This document shows, one piece after another, positions 2,468-60,995 of a stretch of 64,000 bases of DNA. The notes beneath the pieces were generated by a model. The model saw only the letters and a program-made list of their open reading frames with translations, was not told the DNA's origin and made no database searches. Positions within the stretch are counted from its first letter, which is position 1; each line of letters opens with the position of its first letter. The position numbers were made by a program, and so were the translations under genes. The DNA comes from Enterobacteria phage vB_EcoM_IME281, in the sequence record MH051913; one strand, written 5' to 3'.

Positions 2468-3220
2468 TGAAACTAATATCAATTGTAGGAATCAAACGTA
2501 GCGGTAAGGATACCGTTGCTAACTATGTAATTGAGAATATGGATTCCGTAAAATTCCAACTCGCTGGTCCTATTAAAAAGTATCTGGCTGAAGCTTATGA
2601 ATACATATCTGATGACCCTGTATTCGACCGTAGCTATATGCCTAAACTTGATTTTAACTGTTTTGAAGGTATCGGTTACGACCGTGAAGAAATCATTCCT
2701 TTAAAACCATATGATGTGGTTGATATTTTTGAAAATGCTATTGTTAAGCTGAATAATATCCTTCCTATTCCCGGAATTGATGTTCGTACCGCATATCATT
2801 ATGGTCTTACCCCGGTCCAATATCTGTCTGAAGAAACAAAAGACCAGCTATTTGAAGTAATAAATAAAAATAACAATTGGTCAGTACGTCGTCTCATGCA
2901 GACCCTTGGGACTGATATTATTGTTAACCAATTTGATAAGATGTATTGGGTTAAGTTGTTCGCTTTAGACTATTTTGATAAAATATACTCTGATGCGAAA
3001 TACTATGTCGTACCTGATGTTCGTCAAACACATGAAATTGATTCGCTCAGAGCGATGGGTGCTACGATTATTCATGTAGTTCGCGCTGAAACCGGTCAAG
3101 TACAAGACTCGCACATCACTGAAGCGGGTCTACCAATTTTACCTGGTGACGTTGTTGTTGAAAATAACGGCACTCTTTCTGAACTATACACTACTATTGA
3201 TAAATTATTAGGAAATAAAA

Positions 3221-3228
<8 letters not shown>
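2467..3228 (+). CDS. 1: deoxynucleoside monophosphate kinase gp1
   Basis: P-loop GIKRSGKDT near N-terminus; strong similarity to recalled T4 gp1 (QLAGPIK, WSVRRLMQ, MYWVKLFALDY, ATIIHVVR). Confidence 0.85.
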
Positions 3229-4112
<884 letters not shown>

Positions 4113-24703: not shown

Positions 24704-25162
24704 ATGATTATGATTATCAATGCAAACTCTTGGCACGCTAAACTTCATGACCGTTTTTATGACAGTCATTCTCGACCGCACTCTTTATGTGCTTACTTCT
24801 GGAAAATGGTTTGGGCTTGTTTTGCTTGTGCTGTTGTTGCAGGTAGTACGCTTTTTGGATTAACTGTTGCAGGTGTTGGTGTATTAGAGCATTTCTTTGT
24901 ATTAAGTACCCCTGTTCTGTTGAGTCTAGGGTTTGTTTTAGGATTGGTTGCAATAGCTCTTATTATTGCGCTATCCATTGGTTTGGCATTCGGTGCGATG
25001 AATTTACACGCATGGTATGATGCCCGTAGAGAAGAAAAGGAATGGCAACGTATTCAAGCTGAGCGTGAAGGCCGAGAAACTAAAGAAAACATCGTTATTC
25101 AATACATTAAAGCTCGTAAATCTAAGGTCTGTCCGGTAATCCACTTCGAGGACAAAGAATGA
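24704..25162 (+). CDS. integral membrane protein (152 aa)
   Basis: Multiple hydrophobic helices. Confidence 0.5.
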   Translation: MIMIINANSWHAKLHDRFYDSHSRPHSLCAYFWKMVWACFACAVVAGSTLFGLTVAGVGVLEHFFVLSTPVLLSLGFVLGLVAIALIIALSIGLAFGAMNLHAWYDARREEKEWQRIQAEREGRETKENIVIQYIKARKSKVCPVIHFEDKE

Positions 25163-26169
25163 GAACAGTTATGAAAGGCTACTTCGGTAGTCACCTTTAT
25201 GGAACAAGTACTCCAGAATCTGATGTTGATTTTAAAGAAATCTTTGTTCCACATCCGCGTGATATTCTGTTAGGTACGGCTATGAACCATACCAACCTGA
25301 ATACGAATAACACTGCTTCCAAAAACACTAAAGATGATGTTGACCACGAGCTTTACAGCCTGAAATATTTCTTTAAACTGGCGGCAGATGGCGAAACCGT
25401 TGCTCTGGATATGCTCCACACTCCACCTGAAATGGTGGTTAAATCTGATTTACCTGGTGTATGGAAATTTATCCAAGACAATCGTTCTCGGTTCTATACG
25501 ACTAACATGAAAGCCTATTTAGGGTACGTCCGTAAGCAAGCTTCTAAATATGGTGTTAAGGGTTCTCGACTAGCTGCACTGCGTGGTGTACTGGCTATTG
25601 TTAACCAGATTCCTGAACAGTGGGTCGATTATCAAGAAGGAATCCCTGATAGACTTCGTCGTACTAAGGTAGAAGATATCAAACACAGACTCCCTGAAAA
25701 TGAGTTCTGTGAATGGGTATTCCATAACCATGAGAAAACAGGTCCGCAAACGTTCTATACTGTTCTAGGACGTAAGTACCAAACTACTTTGTCTTTAATC
25801 GAGCTCAAGCAATCTCTGAATAAGCTCGATGCTGAATATGGTGAACGTGCCCGTAAAGCTGAAGCTAACGAAGGTATTGACTGGAAAGCTCTGAGCCATG
25901 CTTATCGGGCTGGGTATCAATTGTTGGAAATCTACCAAACAGGCGACCTGGTATTCCCATTGCGCGAAGCCTCTATCATTAAGCTGATTAAGGCCGGTGA
26001 ACTTCCATTTAAAGAGGTCCAAGAACTTCTTGAAGACACTGTTGATTTAGTCGAAGTACTGGCTATCCAGGCTCATAAGAACGGTATGCCTGCTAAGGTA
26101 GATATGAAGTTCTGGGACAAGTTTGTTGAAGAGGTATACCTTGACAACCACAACTCTTATTATCGATAA
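25159..26169 (+). CDS. nucleotidyltransferase-fold protein (336 aa)
   Basis: N-terminal YFGSHLYGTSTPESDVDF fits the hG[GS]x9-13DhD pol-beta-type NTase signature. Confidence 0.55.
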   Translation: MRTVMKGYFGSHLYGTSTPESDVDFKEIFVPHPRDILLGTAMNHTNLNTNNTASKNTKDDVDHELYSLKYFFKLAADGETVALDMLHTPPEMVVKSDLPGVWKFIQDNRSRFYTTNMKAYLGYVRKQASKYGVKGSRLAALRGVLAIVNQIPEQWVDYQEGIPDRLRRTKVEDIKHRLPENEFCEWVFHNHEKTGPQTFYTVLGRKYQTTLSLIELKQSLNKLDAEYGERARKAEANEGIDWKALSHAYRAGYQLLEIYQTGDLVFPLREASIIKLIKAGELPFKEVQELLEDTVDLVEVLAIQAHKNGMPAKVDMKFWDKFVEEVYLDNHNSYYR

Positions 26170-26176
26170 CGAAGAA

Positions 26177-26365
26177 ATGAAGGTCTTTTTATCATATGGA
26201 AGACCCCATAAAACCCGACGTTGGTATCTTGAAGCTGTCTGTAAAGAAACCGGACGTCGAGTCAATATCAAGTACGTGTGCAAACCTACGCCTAAACAGA
26301 CAAGACAATTTGTTAACTGGGCTATAAATGATATACGCTTCCATAATTTTTGGAGCGCAATTTAG
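26177..26365 (+). CDS. hypothetical small basic protein (62 aa)
   Basis: M19 of track ORF 26123; followed by terminator; weak RBS. Confidence 0.3.
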   Translation: MKVFLSYGRPHKTRRWYLEAVCKETGRRVNIKYVCKPTPKQTRQFVNWAINDIRFHNFWSAI

Positions 26366-26386
26366 GAACCTTCGGGTTCCTTTTTT
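26365..26386 (+). terminator. rho-independent terminator
   Basis: GGAACC-TTCG-GGTTCC plus T6. Confidence 0.7.
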
Positions 26387-26405
26387 GGGTTTAGTGCAAA
26401 AAAGA

Positions 26406-26434
26406 GTTTACACCCTCGTAGAGCATGTTATTAT
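26406..26434 (+). promoter_or_regulatory. early promoter/stem-loop cassette
   Basis: GTTTAC, 17 nt, TATTAT; degenerate core GTTATTATGGACCTATCAA. Confidence 0.55.
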
Positions 26435-26471
26435 GGACCTATCAAATCTACTGAGTGAAATGGAGAATATA

Positions 26472-27452
26472 ATGTTAACTATCAAAATCAACAAAGGTAT
26501 CTATCGCGGTAATGTAATCTCCGGTACGTTCATGAGTTCAGGTAAAACCTGGTTCCCTAATAAAATTCATGAATCCGAAGCTCACCTCGGTGATGGTAAG
26601 GTATTTGTACAGATTGATGGTGTTGAACGTGGTGTATGGGTGTTCAAATGTGACGTTGAAATGGAAGGTGCTGAAGCTCCTGCAATGGTTACTGAATCCG
26701 CTGAAGAAATGAAACATCGCATCAACAAACGTTTTAAAGTAATGAACATGATGACTAACGGAATCATCGATGGTAAAATTCGTTCCCTTATCATCTCTGG
26801 TGCCGCAGGTATTGGTAAAACTTATTCTTTGGATAAAGCATTACAGAATGCCCACGAAAATGAAACTATCGAATATAAATCAATCAACGGAAAGATTAGT
26901 GGAATCGGTCTTTACGAGCAGCTTTGGAATAACCGCGGCCCTAATAGTGTTCTTCTTATCGATGATGTTGATGTATTCTCTGATATGGATATCCTGAACC
27001 TGTTAAAAGCAGCATTGGATACCGGTGAAAAACGTAAGGTGTGCTGGAGCACTTCAAGTTCTTATCTCGATGATAAAAATATCGATAAAGAATTCGAATA
27101 CGAAGGCACCATCGTGTTCATCACCAACGTTGATATTGACCGTGAATTAGAGCGTGGAACTAAACTTGCTCCGCACCTCCAGGCTTTAGTATCTCGTTCA
27201 GTTTACTTAGACCTCGGAGTTCACTCTAACGAAGAGATTATGGTTCGTGTTGAAGACGTTATCCTGTCCACTGATATGATGCAAAATCGAGGTCTGACCG
27301 ATGCTGAGACTTATCAAGCACTGGCATGGATGAAGGCTAATGTATCTCGTCTTCGTAACGTATCATTACGTACAGCTCTTTATCTGGCGGACTTCATTGC
27401 CACCGATAAAAATGACTGGAACGAAATTGCTGAAGTTACACTTCTGAAATAA
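26472..27452 (+). CDS. AAA+ ATPase-like protein (326 aa)
   Basis: Walker A ISGAAGIGKTY, Walker B VLLIDDVD; M49 of track ORF with GGAG RBS. Confidence 0.6.
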   Translation: MLTIKINKGIYRGNVISGTFMSSGKTWFPNKIHESEAHLGDGKVFVQIDGVERGVWVFKCDVEMEGAEAPAMVTESAEEMKHRINKRFKVMNMMTNGIIDGKIRSLIISGAAGIGKTYSLDKALQNAHENETIEYKSINGKISGIGLYEQLWNNRGPNSVLLIDDVDVFSDMDILNLLKAALDTGEKRKVCWSTSSSYLDDKNIDKEFEYEGTIVFITNVDIDRELERGTKLAPHLQALVSRSVYLDLGVHSNEEIMVRVEDVILSTDMMQNRGLTDAETYQALAWMKANVSRLRNVSLRTALYLADFIATDKNDWNEIAEVTLLK

Positions 27453-33179: not shown

Positions 33180-33481
33180 TGAATTTATTTGAATTTGAAG
33201 GTAAAACTGTTCGTATTACTGAAGAAGATGTCGACCATTATGTTGACTGGCCTGAATTAAACGGCAATCGCGGTTTTGAGTCAGGCGAGCTCTGTGAAGG
33301 TGCTGAAGTTAAAATCTTGAAGGTGGAGATTTCTCCATGGGGCAATCCTGAAATCATTGGCGTAACTGCTATCGAATTCAATGGTAAGGTATACGAATAC
33401 ACTAAAGAAATGTTTGAAGATACTAAAGCTTCATTCTGGTGTTTTTGGACTAACGATGATAATGAATTTGAGGTCGCATGA
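33179..33481 (+). CDS. hypothetical protein (100 aa)
   Basis: ORF track. Confidence 0.45.
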   Translation: MNLFEFEGKTVRITEEDVDHYVDWPELNGNRGFESGELCEGAEVKILKVEISPWGNPEIIGVTAIEFNGKVYEYTKEMFEDTKASFWCFWTNDDNEFEVA

Positions 33482-33663
33482 AAACTGCATTAGTCTATAC
33501 CGAAAAGTTAAATGGTGACAAAGTCTGGAAACTTCTTATTAAAGGAAGTCCTACCGACCAGTTTATGGCCACCTGTATTGGATTGTATACTCGTCCTACT
33601 AAAAAGATGATTCGTCAATTTAAACGGTTACATCGCTCGTTTTATAGTACATTCGAAAAATAA
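33478..33663 (+). CDS. hypothetical basic protein (61 aa)
   Basis: ORF track. Confidence 0.4.
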   Translation: MKTALVYTEKLNGDKVWKLLIKGSPTDQFMATCIGLYTRPTKKMIRQFKRLHRSFYSTFEK

Positions 33664-33698
33664 TAAATACCCTTATCTAATACAGGTAAGGGTTTATT

Positions 33699-34172
33699 AT
33701 GTTGTTGACTGGTAAATTATACAAAGAAGAAAAACAAAAACTTTATGATGCACAGGATGGTAAGTGTTTAATCTGTACCCGTGAATTAAACCCTGATGTT
33801 CAAAGCAACCACCTTGACCATGACCACGAATTAAACGGGCCAAAAGCTGGTAAGGTTCGTGGGTTACTATGCAACCTGTGTAATGCCGCAGAAGGACAAA
33901 TGAAGCATAAGTTTAACCGCTCCGGTCTTAAAGGTCAAAACGTTGACTACCTCGAATGGTTAGAGAATTTGCTTGTCTATCTGAAATCTGATTATACTGA
34001 AAACAATATCCATCCTAATTTCGTTCCTGATAAAACCAAAGAGTTCAGTAGATTAGGTAAGGAAGAAATGATTGCTGAAATGCTTTCACACGGAATGACT
34101 TATAATGAATCTGACACAAAGAAACAAATGGTCGATTCATTTAAAAAACAACTGAGGAAATCGCTTAAATGA
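33699..34172 (+). CDS. 49: endonuclease VII (Holliday junction resolvase)
   Basis: 157 aa; MLLTGKLYKEEKQK..CLIC..HLDHDHELNGPKAGKVRGLLCNLCNAAEG near-identical to recalled T4 gp49. Confidence 0.9.
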   Translation: MLLTGKLYKEEKQKLYDAQDGKCLICTRELNPDVQSNHLDHDHELNGPKAGKVRGLLCNLCNAAEGQMKHKFNRSGLKGQNVDYLEWLENLLVYLKSDYTENNIHPNFVPDKTKEFSRLGKEEMIAEMLSHGMTYNESDTKKQMVDSFKKQLRKSLK

Positions 34173-56109: not shown

Positions 56110-57533
56110 AAACTATTTTGGCTCAACTGCTAGGCAATAGTGATTATTTCACTAAGGTCTGGCCTTATATGAATGATTCTTATTTTGACCAGGGTCCGGC
56201 AAAGACCCTTTTCAAAGAAATCAAAAAACATGTCAATGAATATAATGCGGTGCCTTCTAAAAATGCTTTGAGTATTGCATTAGATAACAGCACCCTTTCA
56301 GAAGTTGAACATCAAGGAGCTAAAGAGCTTTTAAATTCTCTGAATGCAGGCCCTGAAGACCAAGAATGGTTGGTTAAAGAGACAGAGAAATATGTTCAGA
56401 AGGCAGCGATGTATAATGCCACTTCAAAAATTATTGAAATTCAAACTAATGCAGACCTTCCGGTTGAGCAACAAAATAGAAAACTCCCAGGTATTGGTGC
56501 TATTCCAGATATCATGCGTGATGCATTATCGATTTGTTTCGATTCTGAATTAGGCCACGACTGGATGGATGACTATGAAGAACGTTTTAAAAGTTATTCT
56601 GATAAAGCCTGTAAGGTTCCATTCCGTCTTAATATTCTGAACAAGATTACTAAGGGTGGCGCTGAGTTTGGTACTGAAAACGTATTGTTGGCAGGAACAA
56701 ACGTAGGTAAGTCTCTTGGACTGTGTTCATTGGCTGCTGATTACCTTCAATCAGGTTATGATGTTCTTTATATCTCCATGGAGATGGCAGAGGAAGTATG
56801 TGCTAAGCGTATCGATGCTAACCTTCTGGATGTATCACTGGATGATATCGATGATGGTCACGTCTCATGGCCTGAATATAAAGCTAAGATGGATAAGTGG
56901 CGTTCAACTGCTACTTTAGGTCGTTTAAAGATTAAACAGTACCCTACTGGTGGTGCTAATGCCGATACATTCCGTGCATTATTAAACGAATACAAGCTCA
57001 AACAAAACTTTGTCCCACAGGTCGTTATCGTCGACTACCTGGCCATCTGTGCATCTTCTCGTACGAAAGTTTTCTCTGAAAACAGTTACGGATTGATTAA
57101 GATGGTTGCTGAAGAACTACGTGGGCTTGCAGTAGAGAAGAAATTATTGCTGTGGACGGCAGCCCAGACTACTCGTGGTGCGAACGTTGCAGCCGAAATC
57201 GATATGGCCGATATTGCTGAATCTTTTGGTATTGCACATACTGCAGACTTCATGTTAGGTGTGGTCGAGACAGAAGAGTTTGCTCAGATGGGTATGCAAA
57301 TGGTTAAGCAGCTTAAATCTCGTTATGGTGATAAGAGCTACTACAACAAATTTAAGATTGGTGTTAAGAAAGGAAACCAGCGTTGGTATGAAGTTGAAGA
57401 CGATTCCAACCCAGGCCCTGTGAACACCGTTCGTGAGGCTACAGGTGAAATGAATCGCCAAGCTGAAGTCAATCGCCAGACACGTGTTAATAGAAGTGAT
57501 TTAGACGATTTAGCAGCATCTATCAAATTTTAA
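56103..57533 (+). CDS. 41: replicative DNA helicase gp41 (GTG start inferred)
   Basis: Walker A GTNVGKS, Walker B VVIVDYL; strong match to recalled T4 gp41; GTG 56103 gives MVETIL (T4 MVEIIL), 476 aa; track starts at GTG 56094. Confidence 0.9.
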   Translation: MVETILAQLLGNSDYFTKVWPYMNDSYFDQGPAKTLFKEIKKHVNEYNAVPSKNALSIALDNSTLSEVEHQGAKELLNSLNAGPEDQEWLVKETEKYVQKAAMYNATSKIIEIQTNADLPVEQQNRKLPGIGAIPDIMRDALSICFDSELGHDWMDDYEERFKSYSDKACKVPFRLNILNKITKGGAEFGTENVLLAGTNVGKSLGLCSLAADYLQSGYDVLYISMEMAEEVCAKRIDANLLDVSLDDIDDGHVSWPEYKAKMDKWRSTATLGRLKIKQYPTGGANADTFRALLNEYKLKQNFVPQVVIVDYLAICASSRTKVFSENSYGLIKMVAEELRGLAVEKKLLLWTAAQTTRGANVAAEIDMADIAESFGIAHTADFMLGVVETEEFAQMGMQMVKQLKSRYGDKSYYNKFKIGVKKGNQRWYEVEDDSNPGPVNTVREATGEMNRQAEVNRQTRVNRSDLDDLAASIKF

Positions 57534-57552
57534 GGAGCTTCGGCTCCTTTTT
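57534..57552 (+). terminator. rho-independent terminator
   Basis: GGAGC-TTCG-GCTCC plus T5. Confidence 0.65.
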
Positions 57553-57561
57553 GTTTTAAGG

Positions 57562-57590
57562 GTTTACATCTCCTATAGGCATGATACTAT
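57562..57590 (+). promoter_or_regulatory. early promoter/stem-loop cassette
   Basis: GTTTAC, 17 nt, TACTAT; core GCATGATACTATAGACCTATCAAC identical to 16912 copy. Confidence 0.65.
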
Positions 57591-57614
57591 AGACCTATCA
57601 ACTTGGAGAACAAA

Positions 57615-57932
57615 ATGAAAACTATCGATTGTAAAGCAGAACATAAAGTGTATTACCACGGAAGTTGTAGTGATGCTAATATTGGTAATATGCTTTGTCC
57701 TCCTGAGGAAACAGGAGTTCTGTCTGAAACTGGTCGTAAGAAAAACCTGAATCGTGTATTCTTTACTGAGGATATTGGTTTGGCTAAGATTTATGCTGGA
57801 CGAGCTGCTCGTTCAGTGGGAGGAGAACCTCGTCTTTATCGTGTAATTGCTCCGGTAGATGTGGTTTGTTTAAATGATACTAAAGGCGCTACGGTATATC
57901 ATGCCGAATGGGCCTTCTGTGAGGAAATCTAA
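57615..57932 (+). CDS. hypothetical protein (105 aa), cassette-driven insertion upstream of dmd
   Basis: ATG after GGAGAACAAA in cassette leader (track used TTG 57603); contains HGS, AKIYAG and YHAEW motifs. Confidence 0.5.
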   Translation: MKTIDCKAEHKVYYHGSCSDANIGNMLCPPEETGVLSETGRKKNLNRVFFTEDIGLAKIYAGRAARSVGGEPRLYRVIAPVDVVCLNDTKGATVYHAEWAFCEEI

Positions 57933-58136
57933 ATGTTTAAATTAGAGATCGTAGTGTTTATTGGTTGGTTTGAAAATGGTAATATGTTTACCAAAGAAAC
58001 TGCGCTGGATGTTAGTGACCAAAAAATGATTGAATGGGTTACAGTGCAGTATGCAGAAGTGAATAATGCACTGGTGAAAGCCTTTGTTAATGACAATAAA
58101 GTTTTTGAATATGATGCCCGCATTGAGGAAATCTAA
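57933..58136 (+). CDS. dmd: Dmd antitoxin (inhibitor of host RnlA/LsoA RNase toxins)
   Basis: 67 aa; VVFIGWFENGNMFTKE..QYAEVNNALVKAFVNDNKV matches recalled T4 Dmd; between 41 and 61. Confidence 0.8.
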   Translation: MFKLEIVVFIGWFENGNMFTKETALDVSDQKMIEWVTVQYAEVNNALVKAFVNDNKVFEYDARIEEI

Positions 58137-58277
58137 ATGGAAGAAGTAGAATGTGTAGTGTGCGGCTGTTCAGTTTGTGAAGACGAAGCCGTTTTTGACG
58201 CGTATGATAATGCGACTTGTTTAGACTGTGACAGTGAATTCGAAGAAATTGCTCATAAACATGAAGACGAGGAATAA
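58137..58277 (+). CDS. zinc-ribbon micro-protein (46 aa)
   Basis: Not in ORF track; CVVCGCSVC...CLDC four-Cys motif; fills gap exactly between neighbours. Confidence 0.45.
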   Translation: MEEVECVVCGCSVCEDEAVFDAYDNATCLDCDSEFEEIAHKHEDEE

Positions 58278-58574
58278 ATGAATATTCAAATTATGAAGCC
58301 TGTTAAAAGTGGCTTTTGGGACCGGTCTTTCGGTAAGCATAAGATTTATGCAGATCGTATTAACAGTCGCTGGGAACTTGTCCTTTCTCAGGAAACTAAA
58401 GGCGAAATGGATTTTGTAGAGTTCTACGAATTCGATGTTCGTCCTACTAAGCGCCAGATTCGTCAGTGCAAAAAAGCTTTTCGTGCTTATGTTGGTGGTG
58501 AGGTTCTCCGTCGTCAACGTCGTCTGATAATGGAATCACAGTTAGTAACTTTAGATTACGCTAAAGTAAAATAA
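58278..58574 (+). CDS. hypothetical basic protein with RPTKRQ motif (98 aa)
   Basis: ORF track; VRPTKRQIRQCKKAFRAYV shared with 59363 product. Confidence 0.45.
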   Translation: MNIQIMKPVKSGFWDRSFGKHKIYADRINSRWELVLSQETKGEMDFVEFYEFDVRPTKRQIRQCKKAFRAYVGGEVLRRQRRLIMESQLVTLDYAKVK

Positions 58575-58576
58575 GT

Positions 58577-58606
58577 GTTTACAACGGTCTATGGTAGTGA
58601 TACTAT
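58577..58606 (+). promoter_or_regulatory. early promoter/stem-loop cassette
   Basis: GTTTAC, 18 nt, TACTAT; core GTGATACTATAGACCTATCAACTAATGAGGAG. Confidence 0.6.
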
Positions 58607-58634
58607 AGACCTATCAACTAATGAGGAGTTAAAA

Positions 58635-58928
58635 ATGAAAAAGTTATTAATCGCAGCAATCCTTACAGTAGCATCATGTGGCACAGCTCCAGTTACAGCT
58701 GGGTTGGATAAAGACCTTTGTGAATGGTCTATGACTGCAGACCAAGAATCAGTTGAACATCAGATTTATGCTGATATCATGAACATCACTAAACGTGACC
58801 GTCCTGATATGGTTAAAGAAGTATCCGACCAATTGGCTTCTAGCGGTGTTATGCAGTATAACTATGTTCTGTACTGTGATGCTAATTTCGATAACAAAAA
58901 TATCGTTAAAGAGGTGACAGGTGAATAA
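58635..58928 (+). CDS. putative periplasmic lipoprotein (97 aa)
   Basis: M21 of track ORF; signal peptide with lipobox-like VASC; size and position similar to T4 sp (61.3), positional only. Confidence 0.4.
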   Translation: MKKLLIAAILTVASCGTAPVTAGLDKDLCEWSMTADQESVEHQIYADIMNITKRDRPDMVKEVSDQLASSGVMQYNYVLYCDANFDNKNIVKEVTGE

Positions 58929-59361
58929 GATTAACAGAAATTTGGTTATCAAAAAACTTCGTTGTAAAAATCCAAATGCCCAGGCATACAGAATGTATTG
59001 GAGCGACGACCATCAATACCTGGGTTATTTTATTGTTGATAGCGATGATAGGATTGTATTTGCCCATAAACTTCTTAATAGAGAATTAAACCACTGGCAA
59101 GAACTTATTGCTGTTAAGTCTAAATTATTTTCGCGCAATACAATACACCAATTGGTTTATTTTTTCGCTGATGGTTTTCCTGACAAGGTTGAATTTGAAG
59201 GATTCGAATTTAAAGATATCCTCCCGGACAATGAATTTAACGACTGCGTTAATATGGATATCCCTAGCAAGTATATCAAAAACAGTCTGTTGAAAATTCT
59301 GGAAGCTCCGGTTTATTCAATCGACGACCAGATTTTTAATGCCTTTATGAATCGAGGTTGA
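58921..59361 (+). CDS. hypothetical protein (146 aa; GTG start)
   Basis: ORF track; AGAGG RBS before GTG. Confidence 0.4.
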   Translation: MNKINRNLVIKKLRCKNPNAQAYRMYWSDDHQYLGYFIVDSDDRIVFAHKLLNRELNHWQELIAVKSKLFSRNTIHQLVYFFADGFPDKVEFEGFEFKDILPDNEFNDCVNMDIPSKYIKNSLLKILEAPVYSIDDQIFNAFMNRG

Positions 59362-59362
59362 T

Positions 59363-59584
59363 ATGTTTGTTTTAACTCAATTCTCTAAAGCGGTATATGG
59401 TTACTCTTGTCAGTGGGAAGTCTTTATTGATTCTCCTTCACCTAAGTATGGTGTTTTTGGACGAGTAACTACTCAAGCTTATGTTGCACGGCCAACTAAG
59501 CGCCAGCTTCGTAAACTTAAAAAGGCCCATCGTCAACTGATTAAAAGAAGGGAACAATATGAGTGCAATGTGTACGGGCTCTAA
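59363..59584 (+). CDS. hypothetical basic protein with RPTKRQ motif (73 aa)
   Basis: ORF track; ARPTKRQLRKLKKAHRQLI paralogous to 58278 product. Confidence 0.45.
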   Translation: MFVLTQFSKAVYGYSCQWEVFIDSPSPKYGVFGRVTTQAYVARPTKRQLRKLKKAHRQLIKRREQYECNVYGL

Positions 59585-59750
59585 GATTTCTGTATTCGAG
59601 TTGTTCGAAGAATATGAAATCGTATCAAAAGACCAAGAAGCTATCCATGTTATTGCTGATGATGGTGTGACCTGGATTATCCCACTTTACCACGAAGATA
59701 CGTACGAAGTCACTGACGCCAACGGTGACAAAGCTATTTTCGTAATATAA
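59559..59750 (+). CDS. hypothetical protein (63 aa)
   Basis: ORF track. Confidence 0.4.
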   Translation: MSAMCTGSKISVFELFEEYEIVSKDQEAIHVIADDGVTWIIPLYHEDTYEVTDANGDKAIFVI

Positions 59751-59766
59751 ATAAGGCCAGGAGCCT

Positions 59767-59928
59767 ATGAAATCTTTTAAAGAAGTTATGAACGAAGATA
59801 TGGTCGCAGGCGATGCTGGTGGAAATCCATCTAATATTGCCTCCGGAACTACCTCAGGCGCAGTCGTCAACAAAGGGCCTGAACAAATCCCATCTAAAAA
59901 GCGTAAAGAAAAATCCGAAAACGAATGA
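59767..59928 (+). CDS. hypothetical low-complexity protein (53 aa)
   Basis: Not in ORF track; AGGAG RBS; Gly/Ser-rich then basic tail. Confidence 0.4.
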   Translation: MKSFKEVMNEDMVAGDAGGNPSNIASGTTSGAVVNKGPEQIPSKKRKEKSENE

Positions 59929-59966
59929 TATAATGGCTCTATTAATTTAGAGCCCAAGGAAAAATA

Positions 59967-60995
59967 ATGTCATATGTCGATAGAGAATTTGCTGTACGTG
60001 CCTTGAATTACCAACCTAAATTCAGACAAGTAACTGGTAGTGATTTTAAATTAAATTGTCGTTGTCGTGTATGCGGTGACTCCCAAAAGGATGAGAACAA
60101 AGCTCGTTTTTGGGCCTATCCGGCCAATGACGGTTCCATTATGTTGCATTGTTTTAACTGCGACTATTCAGCAGGAATTAAGAAGTACCTATATGAATAT
60201 GAGCCTGATTTATATCGCGAATATATTCTTGAGAAACATAAAGAGCAATCGTTCGGGAGACAAGCTGCACCTAAGGTGGAGATATCTGAAAAAATTAAAG
60301 CTAAGATGCCTGTCATCGAAAAGCTTAATTTCTGCGAACGATTAGATAGAATGCCGAAGGACCATCCTATTATCAAATATGTGACGCTGCGTTGCATTCC
60401 TGAAAATAAATGGAATCGACTATGGTTTACTAAAGAATGGCCTGCATTGGTTAACTCAGTTAATCCAGGGACCTATTCTAAAGAAATGCCTGAGCCTCGT
60501 TTGGTTATTCCTATTTTCAATAAGGATAAACAAATAGAAAGTTTCCAGGGTCGAGCTTTACGTAAAGATGCTCCACAAAAATATATTACAATAAAAGCTC
60601 ATGACCAAGCTACAAAAATATATGGAATGGATACGGTTGATGAACGTCAATTGGTATGGGTTATGGAAGGACCGATTGATTCTTTATTTGTCCCTAATGC
60701 CATAGCAATTACTGGCGGGTCTTTGGACTTGGCTATGGTTCCATGTAAAGAAACTCGTGCTTGGGTAATGGACAATGAACCCCGTCATCCTGACACAATT
60801 AAGCGTATGCAACGATTAGTTGATGCCGGCGAAAGGGTCCTATTCTGGGACAAGGCTCCATGGCCTTCTAAAGATATAAATGATATGGTTATGAAAGATA
60901 AAGCTGATATAAATGATATATTGGCGTATATGAAAGCTAATATAGCCCAAGGTCTAATGGCAAAAATGAGGCTTTCAAAATATTCTAAAATTTAG
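59967..60995 (+). CDS. 61: DNA primase gp61
   Basis: 342 aa (same as T4 gp61); N-terminal zinc ribbon CRCRVCGDS..CFNCDY; position after 41. Confidence 0.85.
   Translation: MSYVDREFAVRALNYQPKFRQVTGSDFKLNCRCRVCGDSQKDENKARFWAYPANDGSIMLHCFNCDYSAGIKKYLYEYEPDLYREYILEKHKEQSFGRQAAPKVEISEKIKAKMPVIEKLNFCERLDRMPKDHPIIKYVTLRCIPENKWNRLWFTKEWPALVNSVNPGTYSKEMPEPRLVIPIFNKDKQIESFQGRALRKDAPQKYITIKAHDQATKIYGMDTVDERQLVWVMEGPIDSLFVPNAIAITGGSLDLAMVPCKETRAWVMDNEPRHPDTIKRMQRLVDAGERVLFWDKAPWPSKDINDMVMKDKADINDILAYMKANIAQGLMAKMRLSKYSKI

Follow-up and report, generated by a model that had tools for sequence, protein, structure and literature searches.

What do two small basic open reading frames that share one short motif encode, and are they related to each other? 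The window analyzed herein, 64,000 nucleotides of Enterobacteria phage vB_EcoM_IME281 (record MH051913; one strand, 5' to 3'), derives from a JS98-like Dhakavirus. On its plus strand, it carries an ORF of 98 amino acids at 58278..58574 (ORF98) and an ORF of 73 amino acids at 59363..59584 (ORF73), which a preliminary description had proposed to be paralogs with a common RPTKRQ[IL]R motif, suggestive of nucleic-acid binding, in otherwise different proteins. The coordinates and strand of both ORFs are confirmed, and the peptides quoted from them, VRPTKRQIRQCKKAFRAYV and ARPTKRQLRKLKKAHRQLI, are correct. Our results reveal that ORF98 and ORF73 are real, homologous genes under purifying selection that belong to the TifA family (Pfam DUF7279), a family that has already been described and of which members nearly identical to these two were cloned and assayed in earlier work.

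A shared signature and a common family

The motif spans R55-R69 of ORF98 (RPTKRQIRQCKKAFR; 58440..58484, plus strand), with a Pro-Thr helix cap and the basic residues K58, R59, and R62, and R43-R57 of ORF73 (RPTKRQLRKLKKAHR; 59489..59533, plus strand), with the same cap followed by K46, R47, and R50. Judged from sequence, this arrangement, in which K, R, and R come after a Pro-Thr helix cap, is the one published as the signature of TifA. Specifically, P56, T57, K58, R59, and R62 of ORF98 are the equivalents of TifA P53, T54, K55, R56, and R59 (5 of 5 kept), and the same five TifA residues are retained in ORF73 as P44, T45, K46, R47, and R50 (again 5 of 5). Both proteins are basic overall (pI ~10), and in ORF73, counting from the cap, 10 of the first 20 residues are K or R. 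Across 34 aligned family members, the P is invariant, and the T and R each occur in at least 90%.

Several lines of evidence place this similarity beyond chance. BLASTP aligned ORF98 with ORF73 at E = 4e-6 over 43 residues, and their Smith-Waterman score was 63, against 24.7 +/- 4.6 in shuffles, with 2 of 20,000 shuffles reaching it. The pattern [RK]PT[KRPS][KR][QM].[RH] had four matches when the window was translated in all six frames, each of them in a family member, and none in residue shuffles. Further, an HMM of published TifA homologs, built without the ORFs of the window and searched against its 1,285 stop-to-stop segments, recovered ORF98 at E = 1e-30 and ORF73 at E = 6e-23, with noise starting at E ~0.8. 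The profile search that had been recommended gave the same answer, in that ORF98 (60.1 bits) and ORF73 (67.5 bits) both passed the gathering score of DUF7279 (PF23945; 24.5 bits). Orthologs of both occur in hundreds of phage genomes (tblastn). The two are thus paralogs, sharing one Pfam family, one predicted fold, and matches to T4 gp61.4 by tblastn. The view that they are otherwise different is right at the level of sequence (~10% identity before the motif); however, Pfam aligns ~50 residues of each, and the predicted folds are the same.

Individually, ORF98 matched phrog_2375 at 4e-31 and, in a tblastn comparison with a phage collection, T4 61.4 at 38% identity over 97 amino acids (E 1e-8); over the full length, it is 38-46% identical to T4 TifA, and its C-terminal tail, QLVTLDYAKVK, resembles QFVTCDYAEILK of that protein. 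ORF73 matched phrog_3272 at 9e-25 and T4 61.4 at 35.5% identity over 62 amino acids (E 5e-5), and it retains the hairpin motif FGRV of T4 TifA, in the region that includes residue 41, which tunes ToxN binding. Both genes are conserved at the protein level, with a dN/dS of 0.07 for ORF98 against VR7 (35 synonymous and 18 non-synonymous differences) and of 0.06 for ORF73 against JS98, the same value being obtained against VR7. A minus-strand ORF at 58221-58517 mirrors ORF98, and the substitution pattern favors the plus frame. In the comparison with JS98, dN for ORF98 was 0.38, versus 0.004-0.03 for the flanking genes, a contrast that marks the ORF98 locus as a swapped cassette; such an exchange fits a gene engaged in an arms race.

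Predicted fold

The AlphaFold2 models, predictions that were run with the alignment of 34 sequences, gave strands at residues 2-6, 32-40, and 43-52 and a helix at 58-97 for ORF98 (pLDDT 77.9), and strands at 2-8, 17-26, and 30-40 and a helix at 46-70 for ORF73 (pLDDT 84.4). The helix starts right behind the Pro-Thr cap in both, and the models match the published TifA fold, a predicted three-stranded sheet with a C-terminal basic helix. With Foldseek, both matched one common set of T4-like phage proteins, and the ORF98 model also matched the IME08 ortholog of ORF73. Against the PDB, Foldseek returned no known fold (best match at E of 1.5), and a family profile matched no PDB sequence; the family has no solved structure in the PDB.

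Genomic neighborhood

ORF98 and ORF73 are located in the interval from gene 41 to gene 61, which also contains dmd and spackle (sp); this bears out the placement originally assigned to them. Specifically, dmd, encoding the antitoxin against RnlA/LsoA, occupies 57933..58136 on the plus strand (Pfam Dmd 5e-20; phrog_2102 5e-32) and is separated from ORF98 by a single 46-amino-acid ORF with a CxxC...CxxC pattern (ORF46; 58137-58277). ORF98 occupies the position of T4 tifA/61.4, downstream of dmd, and is the final gene of the unit ORF109-dmd-ORF46-ORF98. ORF73 is only loosely next to dmd, being located 1.2 kb further downstream, past sp and ORF146, in the unit sp-ORF146-ORF73-ORF63-61.1; its start codon is 1 nt past the stop of ORF146, and there is a 26-nt overlap between its 3' end and the start of ORF63.

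A consensus scan returned two promoter-like sites on the plus strand with the same hexamers, TTTACA and a TG-extended TACTAT. One, at 57563..57590 with a 16 nt spacer, lies past the terminator-like hairpin of gene 41 (57532-57549) and may act as an early promoter for ORF109-dmd-ORF46-ORF98, by analogy to the T4 dmd-tifA early promoter (PMC9391042). The other, at 58578..58606 with a 17 nt spacer, directly follows the ORF98 stop and is a candidate promoter for sp-ORF146-ORF73-ORF63-61.1.

TifA and other known systems

In T4, gene 61.4 is tifA (ToxN inhibitory factor A), the product of which inhibits ToxN, a bacterial suicide RNase, and co-precipitates with it (PMC9391042), and the TifA proteins of T2, T4, T6, and RB69 all inhibit ToxN (Srikant et al. 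2022 eLife, PMC9391042; Guegler et al. 2024 NAR, PMC10853763). Mutagenesis of RB69 and T4 TifA revealed that RNA co-purification, ToxN rescue, and co-immunoprecipitation all depend on the PT cap and K55/R56/R59 (PMC10853763). The idea of nucleic-acid binding agrees with these experiments on homologs (PMC10853763), the five residues being kept, and by analogy to them, ORF98 and ORF73 would themselves bind RNA. The variable region has been proposed to set toxin specificity (Guegler et al. 2024, PMC10853763), and each TifA has been proposed to be tuned to its cognate ToxN (PMC9391042).

Close relatives of both proteins described herein have been assayed. TifA of vB_EcoM_005 equals ORF73 at 71 of 73 residues (97% identical), and TifA of VR7 is 82-85% identical to ORF98, while for the JS98 protein encoded at the corresponding position, identity to ORF98 is 53-57%. 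The tifA genes of vB_EcoM_005, VR7, and JS98 (Table S2), tested by co-expression as single representatives of "phylogenetic clusters", neutralized none of seven type III toxins, namely six ToxN homologs and E. coli TenpN; among these were ToxNs of E. coli, Shigella, and Klebsiella against which the TifA proteins of T4 and RB69 are active. Expression of vB_EcoM_005 TifA was confirmed by immunoblot in those tests (PMC10853763). We thus classify ORF98 and ORF73 as members of a sequence family and not as ToxN inhibitors, because their nearest relatives were negative against the six ToxN homologs and TenpN.

The resemblance to TifA (T4 gp61.4, UniProt Y02A; RB69, T2, and T6) comprises DUF7279, the PT-K-R-x-x-R helix start, the predicted fold, and the early-gene neighborhood by dmd and sp, with the T4-type C-terminal tail found also in ORF98. 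However, identity between T4/RB69 TifA and ORF98/ORF73 is only 26-46%, ORF98 lacks the PPFG-type hairpin that carries residue 41 in TifA, and ORF73, unlike tifA, is not adjacent to dmd. Annotators of JS98 and VR7 labeled the orthologs "similar to T4 gp61.4", and the VR7 GenBank record labels both types as gp61.4-like. The main texts of PMC9391042 and PMC10853763 do not discuss the presence of ORF98-type and ORF73-type genes in one genome. In the literature, we found no mention of DUF7279 as a term, and publications since 2024 that name both TifA and ToxN report no new targets.

Two other phage strategies are comparable. Dmd (T4 gp61.5) is a small early phage protein that neutralizes a host RNase toxin and comes from the same cluster as ORF98; however, it belongs to an unrelated family (PF17587), binds its toxin directly, a contact not known to require RNA, and is encoded in the window by its own gene 140 bp upstream of ORF98. 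Phages can also escape ToxIN through pseudo-ToxI RNA repeats (Blower et al. 2012, as cited in PMC9391042), which, like TifA, are a phage-encoded means of neutralizing a type III toxin, but consist of RNA tandem repeats and not of protein. Such an RNA mimic was rejected for this locus for lack of a tandem array of ~36-nt repeats resembling toxI and of an Rfam match. Specifically, 57000-60500 contained no tandem repeats, the whole window contained only six short two-copy arrays, and Rfam at E up to 0.1 gave no match in or near the locus.

Two further family members in the window

The HMM scans raised the number of TifA-family members in the window from two to four, and the additional two are new here. 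The third gene (33478..33663, plus strand; 61 amino acids; RPTKKMIRQFKRLHR) scored 59.2 bits against DUF7279 and lies directly upstream of gene 49 (endonuclease VII, 33699-34172), with a terminator-like hairpin behind it (33669-33693). It matched phrog_3272, the PHROG that it has in common with ORF73, at 7e-34, has homologs in 363 phage records, many of them from Tequatrovirus, and shows a dN/dS of 0.10 against EcWhh-1. The fourth, with the motif KPTPKQTRQF (26177..26365, plus strand; 62 amino acids; DUF7279 38.7 bits; phrog_8921 at 6e-34), is the most divergent of the four and is frequently unannotated in public records. It lies between an NrdC.11-like gene (25159-26169) and an NrdC.10-like gene, with a terminator-like hairpin at 26364-26381, has homologs in 210 phage records, chiefly from Klebsiella and Enterobacter T4-like phages, and has a dN/dS of 0.08 against VR26. 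Its helix is far less basic, with a net charge of +2 from the PT cap onward, and the protein may not bind RNA as TifA does. All four genes thus show a dN/dS of 0.06-0.10, and NCBIfam had no model matching any of the four. In the nearest relative, EcWhh-1, scanned from 1 to 150 kb, there were only three orthologs, all in the range of the window, with the fourth paralog absent.

The paralogs diverge mostly outside the helix. In the sheet, identity is 79% among members of one paralog group but ~13% between groups; for the helix start, the corresponding values are 89% and ~49%. The family genes occupy accessory-gene regions with known counter-defense genes (dmd, sp, and the adfA position). Of the four paralogs, at least three sit beside such genes, two in the 41-61 interval and one in the 49.x region, which houses the anti-OLD gene gp49.2 (PMC13096335). 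The host-interaction role originally suggested for the first two is supported. The preliminary description had missed the named and experimentally studied TifA family, the prior tests of near-identical proteins, and the two further members.

Possible functions and alternative explanations

We consider it likely that ORF98 and ORF73 are two of four TifA-family RNA-tethered inhibitors with differing host targets. The family consists of small early proteins of T4-like phages, and in such a model, the helix, capped by Pro-Thr and opening with K-R-x-x-R, would bind RNA, by homology with T4 and RB69 TifA, while contact with a particular host protein would be made through the sheet and hairpin, the parts that vary from one paralog to another. 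A host RNA-cleaving defense toxin would thereby be tethered onto abundant cellular RNA as an inactive ribonucleoprotein and disarmed, such that phage transcripts would survive. The anti-defense role and the distinct targets are put forward conditionally, the only functional data on close relatives being negative. The sheet identity of 79% within groups and 13% between them, together with the negative ToxN and TenpN tests, argues for different targets rather than redundancy. More tentatively, TifA could be, rather than a lone "anti-ToxIN gene", the founder of a multigene family of such inhibitors, with up to four paralogs per genome, each acting on a different RNA-targeting immune nuclease of the host; we regard this extension as possible, though doubtful. 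If true, a common RNA-binding helix would be combined with four sheet surfaces that are unrelated to one another and are conserved only among members of one group, and the targets would be defense systems without a known phage inhibitor, because close relatives of at least two paralogs leave ToxN and TenpN untouched.

A narrower explanation is that ORF98, ORF73, or both are strict ToxN inhibitors, tuned to natural ToxN variants of Dhakavirus hosts that fall outside the published panel. The location of ORF98 at the T4 tifA position, its identity to T4 TifA that extends into the C-terminal tail, the FGRV hairpin of ORF73, and the proposed tuning of each TifA to its cognate ToxN (PMC9391042) would all be accommodated. 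However, the VR7, vB_EcoM_005, and JS98 relatives neutralized 0 of 6 ToxN homologs, nor did they neutralize TenpN, and carrying four of these inhibitors in a single genome would be redundant in view of the 13% identity in the specificity region, such that we view this explanation as rather unlikely. Quite unlikely, too, is that the proteins are general RNA-binding proteins that serve the RNA metabolism of the phage itself (mRNA stabilization, RNA chaperoning, or translational control) and have no host defense target. While this would fit both the absence of anti-toxin activity in the tested close homologs and the fact that the RNA-binding helix start is the sole part conserved in all paralogs, it leaves unexplained why a different sheet surface is kept in each group, why the genes are patchily distributed (paralog 4 is missing from EcWhh-1, and paralog 3 was deleted in T4), and why a cassette was exchanged at the ORF98 locus. 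Further, the founding member, TifA, requires a specific protein partner.

The same basic character (pI ~10) could instead point to small DNA-binding regulators of phage or host transcription, especially as RB69 TifA binds short ssDNA and dsDNA in vitro with an affinity similar to that for RNA (PMC10853763). Neither Pfam nor Foldseek against the PDB, however, returned a helix-turn-helix or any other DNA-binding fold, and we hold such a role to be highly improbable. There is next to no likelihood that lysine/arginine-rich stretches match by chance or that the ORFs are not genes. The ORFs are short, and basic low-complexity helices can align by chance, as the few shuffles that reached the observed score illustrate, but both ORFs exceed the curated Pfam threshold by more than 35 bits, the independent HMM and the orthologs in hundreds of phage genomes concur, dN/dS is 0.06-0.07, and the models are confident and concordant. 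Together, the shuffles, dN/dS, and the scores from Pfam and the HMM thus refute both chance similarity and non-coding ORFs.

The motif itself calls for no further explanation, being the RNA-binding helix of TifA as defined by experiment. The family as a whole has practical consequences. The presence of four paralogs within 64 kb provides a concrete short list of candidate anti-defense proteins with a plausible common mechanism. Further, tifA has been handled as one gene per phage (PMC9391042, PMC10853763), whereas this phage carries four members, and the family may be sampled incompletely when one tifA gene is knocked out or one "representative" homolog is examined.

A minor observation concerns T4, in which the scan for family members covered 17.6-22.8 kb and 44-56 kb only. 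At its end, T4 pin retains what is left of a deleted TifA paralog, from which the 16-residue tail of T4 Pin derives; it is paralog 3 that was deleted in the T4 reference strain, and the deletion altered the C-terminus of Pin.

The TifA family in the gene 41-61 interval

The window belongs to a Dhakavirus, a T4-type coliphage resembling JS98. Over positions 57500-60000, its megablast identity is 97% with Escherichia phage EcWhh-1, 96% with UP19 and 94% with JS98. On the + strand, the gene 41 helicase ends at 57533 and is followed by ORF109 (57603-57932), dmd (57933-58136), a 46-aa CxxC...CxxC ORF (ORF46; 58137-58277), ORF98 (98 aa; 58278-58574), spackle (sp; 58635-58928), ORF146 (58921-59361), ORF73 (73 aa; 59363-59584), ORF63 (59559-59750), 61.1 (59767-59928) and the gene 61 primase (59967-60995). 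ORF98 and ORF73 had been put forward in the preliminary description as small basic paralogs; the coordinates given there are exact and the quoted peptides correct, and the similarity of the two ORFs extends beyond chance, as BLASTP, Smith-Waterman shuffles, Pfam, PHROG and an independent HMM agree. The BLASTP E-value between the two is 4e-6, and their Smith-Waterman score is 63, compared with 24.7 +/- 4.6 for shuffled sequences (2/20,000 shuffles scored as high). Both exceed the curated cut-off of 24.5 bits for Pfam DUF7279 (PF23945), at 60.1 bits for ORF98 and 67.5 bits for ORF73, and their PHROGs, phrog_2375 and phrog_3272, respectively, are related (both of unknown function), each ORF also matching the family of the other. 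An HMM of TifA (ToxN inhibitory factor A, T4 gp61.4), built from eleven homologs of one published table with the window ORFs left out, found ORF98 at E = 1e-30 and ORF73 at 6e-23 among 1,285 stop-to-stop window segments. Both are genes under purifying selection, with dN/dS of 0.07 for ORF98 (vs VR7) and 0.06 for ORF73 (vs JS98 and vs VR7), similar to the neighbours dmd, sp and 61.1.

In T4, escape from the type III toxin-antitoxin system toxIN involves amplification of dmd-tifA, and TifA co-precipitates with ToxN (PMC9391042). The family hallmark is a conserved Pro-Thr cap followed by a basic cluster; with the variants P53A/T54A and K55A/R56A/R59A, RNA no longer co-purifies, and both ToxN rescue and co-immunoprecipitation of ToxN are lost. 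It is proposed that ToxN becomes trapped on abundant RNA, for example 16S rRNA (PMC10853763). The motif RPTKRQ[IL]R, previously noted as common to the two ORFs, is exactly this element, its hallmark residues being P56, T57, K58, R59 and R62 in ORF98 and P44, T45, K46, R47 and R50 in ORF73. Further, across 50,697 phage records searched by tblastn, both ORFs matched T4 gene 61.4, and the JS98 gene at the ORF98 position is annotated 61.4. AlphaFold2 models built on a 34-sequence family alignment reproduce the published TifA fold for both proteins, with predicted strands at 2-6, 32-40 and 43-52 and a helix at 58-97 in ORF98 (pLDDT 77.9), and strands at 2-8, 17-26 and 30-40 and a helix at 46-70 in ORF73 (pLDDT 84.4). 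Among predicted viral structures, Foldseek gave one shared set of T4-like phage proteins for the two models, and the ORF98 model also matched the IME08 ortholog of ORF73; among solved structures, none resembled either ORF. The family is small and made of short proteins: searched by profile, 1.84 billion representative proteins yielded no more than 79 clusters with E of 0.001 or lower, almost all of 48-130 aa. The output of this search carries no names, taxonomy or genomic context, and every match that could be named (from tblastn and Foldseek) was a phage protein.

The finding as stated is already known: the family is curated in Pfam, its founder is named, the role of the motif is defined and near-identical proteins have been assayed; the VR7 GenBank record already marks its ORF98-type and ORF73-type genes as similar to T4 gp61.4. 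We found no discussion of several TifA-family genes in one genome; the main text of neither primary paper (PMC9391042, PMC10853763) uses the word "paralog" or considers a phage genome with several tifA genes. It is this coexistence, and the targets of the coexisting proteins, that is worth following.

Two further paralogs in the window

An HMM scan of the whole window revealed two more family genes, giving four members, not two. Paralog 3 (33478-33663; 61 aa, RPTKKMIRQFKRLHR) lies just upstream of gene 49, scores 59.2 bits against DUF7279 and shares its PHROG with ORF73, while paralog 4 (26177-26365; 62 aa, KPTPKQTRQF) lies between NrdC.11-like and NrdC.10-like genes and scores 38.7 bits (phrog_8921). 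In a six-frame translation of the window, the motif pattern occurred four times, all in the four family genes, where zero occurrences were expected. Both genes are conserved: paralog 3 turned up in 363 phage records, many of them of Tequatrovirus (75-80% identity), and paralog 4 in 210, mostly T4-like phages of Klebsiella, Enterobacter and Serratia; dN/dS was 0.10 for paralog 3 and 0.08 for paralog 4 (vs VR26). A scan of 1-150 kb of EcWhh-1, the nearest relative, recovered three members, all in the genome part covered by the window, and did not find paralog 4. Many public records carry no annotated feature for paralog 4, for example RefSeq Klebsiella phage JD18 (NC_028686.1) and Escherichia phages QL01, RZ and dhabil. 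The mechanical ORF of the NrdC.10-like P-loop protein (26328-27452) overlaps paralog 4, the terminator-like hairpin behind it and, at 26407-26434, a promoter-like site; the ATG near 26454 (MDLSNLL...) is probably where this protein really begins.

In T4, the counterpart of paralog 3 has been lost by a deletion. In Tequatrovirus HY01 the order is pin (148 aa), a 58-aa TifA-like gene and gene 49, and DNA alignment (HY01 1050-1720; T4T 2840-3375, minus strand) revealed a clean 137-bp deletion in T4. Gone are the final 3 codons of pin with its stop and ~42 codons from the start of the TifA-like gene, whose last 16 codons now continue pin in frame. T4 pin looks like a deletion-fusion, and its product's C-terminus (...MIQQYKRLHQMFYNT) is therefore the tail end of a lost TifA paralog.

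Divergence, exchange and possible targets

Identities computed over four ortholog groups from the family alignment were 79% within and 13% between groups for the sheet before the motif, and 89% within and 49% between groups for the sixteen residues from R/K-P-T onward; thus, each paralog has kept its own sheet surface, and the helix start is common. The variable region has been suggested to set toxin specificity (PMC10853763). Residue 41 of the hairpin tunes ToxN binding, and the T4-like FGRV hairpin is kept in ORF73 and absent from ORF98. All four proteins have a pI of 10.0-10.5, the helix of paralog 4 being far less basic (counted from the PT cap, its net charge is +2). On comparison of alleles, the ORF98 locus behaves as an exchangeable, or recombination, cassette: dN to JS98 is 0.38 in ORF98 and 0.004-0.03 in the flanking genes, whose proteins are 94-99% identical to those of JS98, and the closest relative of ORF98 is in VR7, of another genus, Gaprivervirus. 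Across the locus compared (58137-58574 vs JS98, EcWhh-1 and VR7), dS already reaches ~2.0 within ORF46, upstream of ORF98. In the EcWhh-1 allele of ORF98 ("UNVERIFIED" record), a premature stop codon cuts off the final 11 residues.

Close relatives have already been assayed in the neutralisation panel of Guegler et al. (sequences in their Table S2; PMC10853763). The tifA product of vB_EcoM_005 is identical to ORF73 at 71/73 residues, and those of vB_EcoM_VR7 and JS98 (the latter at the ORF98 position) are 82-85% and 53-57% identical to ORF98, respectively. Four closely related ToxNs were neutralised only by the T2, T4, T6 and RB69 proteins; high expression was confirmed for two proteins of the panel, and the strain list includes a FLAG-tagged vB_EcoM_005 strain (PMC10853763). 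ORF98 and ORF73 are, by sequence, members of the TifA family, and the label "ToxN inhibitor" finds no support for them, because their near relatives in the panel are not among the neutralising proteins.

We consider it probable that all four proteins are TifA-type RNA-binding adaptors, acting as RNA-tethered inhibitors. Through the basic helix they would attach to abundant RNA, and the sheet peculiar to each paralog would lock an RNA-cleaving defence protein of the host into an inactive complex; the targets would differ from paralog to paralog. Strict ToxN inhibitors, tuned to ToxN alleles outside the published panel, would fit the synteny and T4-like tail of ORF98, but the published negative results make this reading unlikely. 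The same negative toxin tests, together with the helix common to the paralogs, agree with housekeeping RNA-binding proteins; patchy presence, cassette exchange and group-specific surfaces agree poorly with such a role, which we regard as somewhat more doubtful still. A role as DNA-binding regulators is very improbable, and chance similarity, at odds with the agreement among searches, deserves practically no credence.

Inferred expression context and neighbouring genes

T4 dmd-tifA is transcribed from an early promoter (PMC9391042). In the window, two promoter-like sites, identified by consensus match only, have identical hexamers (TTTACA and a TG-extended TACTAT): one (57563-57590) follows a terminator-like hairpin (57532-57549) and precedes ORF109-dmd-ORF46-ORF98, and the other (58578-58606) precedes sp-ORF146-ORF73. 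Terminator-like hairpins also lie 3' of paralogs 3 and 4; VR26 retains that of paralog 4, with its T-run (26364-26381), and both arms of the stem have changed there.

ORF46, which lies between dmd and the tifA-like gene, encodes an acidic protein (phrog_13952); T4 has nothing at this position and VR7 a different 110-aa ORF. Upstream of dmd, ORF109 encodes a phrog_2110 protein for which three libraries agree on rifampin ADP-ribosyltransferase (Arr) as the best, though weak, match: Pfam Arr-ms at E 0.005 (top match), NCBIfam at E 0.008 (sole match) and, among PDB sequences, Arr 2hw2/9iaf at E ~0.6 (sole match). With its pattern YYHGS ... VFFTED...A..YA, ORF109 could be a candidate mini ADP-ribosyltransferase inside an anti-toxin gene cluster; genes of this type are named "nucleotidyltransferase" in some records. 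Finally, ORF146 occupies the position of T4 adfA/61.2 (anti-DarT factor) and resembles AdfA only in its last ~15-28 residues, which match the C-terminus of AdfA (E 0.007 in Pfam and 3e-5 for phrog_4122), and VR7 has both an ORF146-type gene and a short 61.2-like gene.
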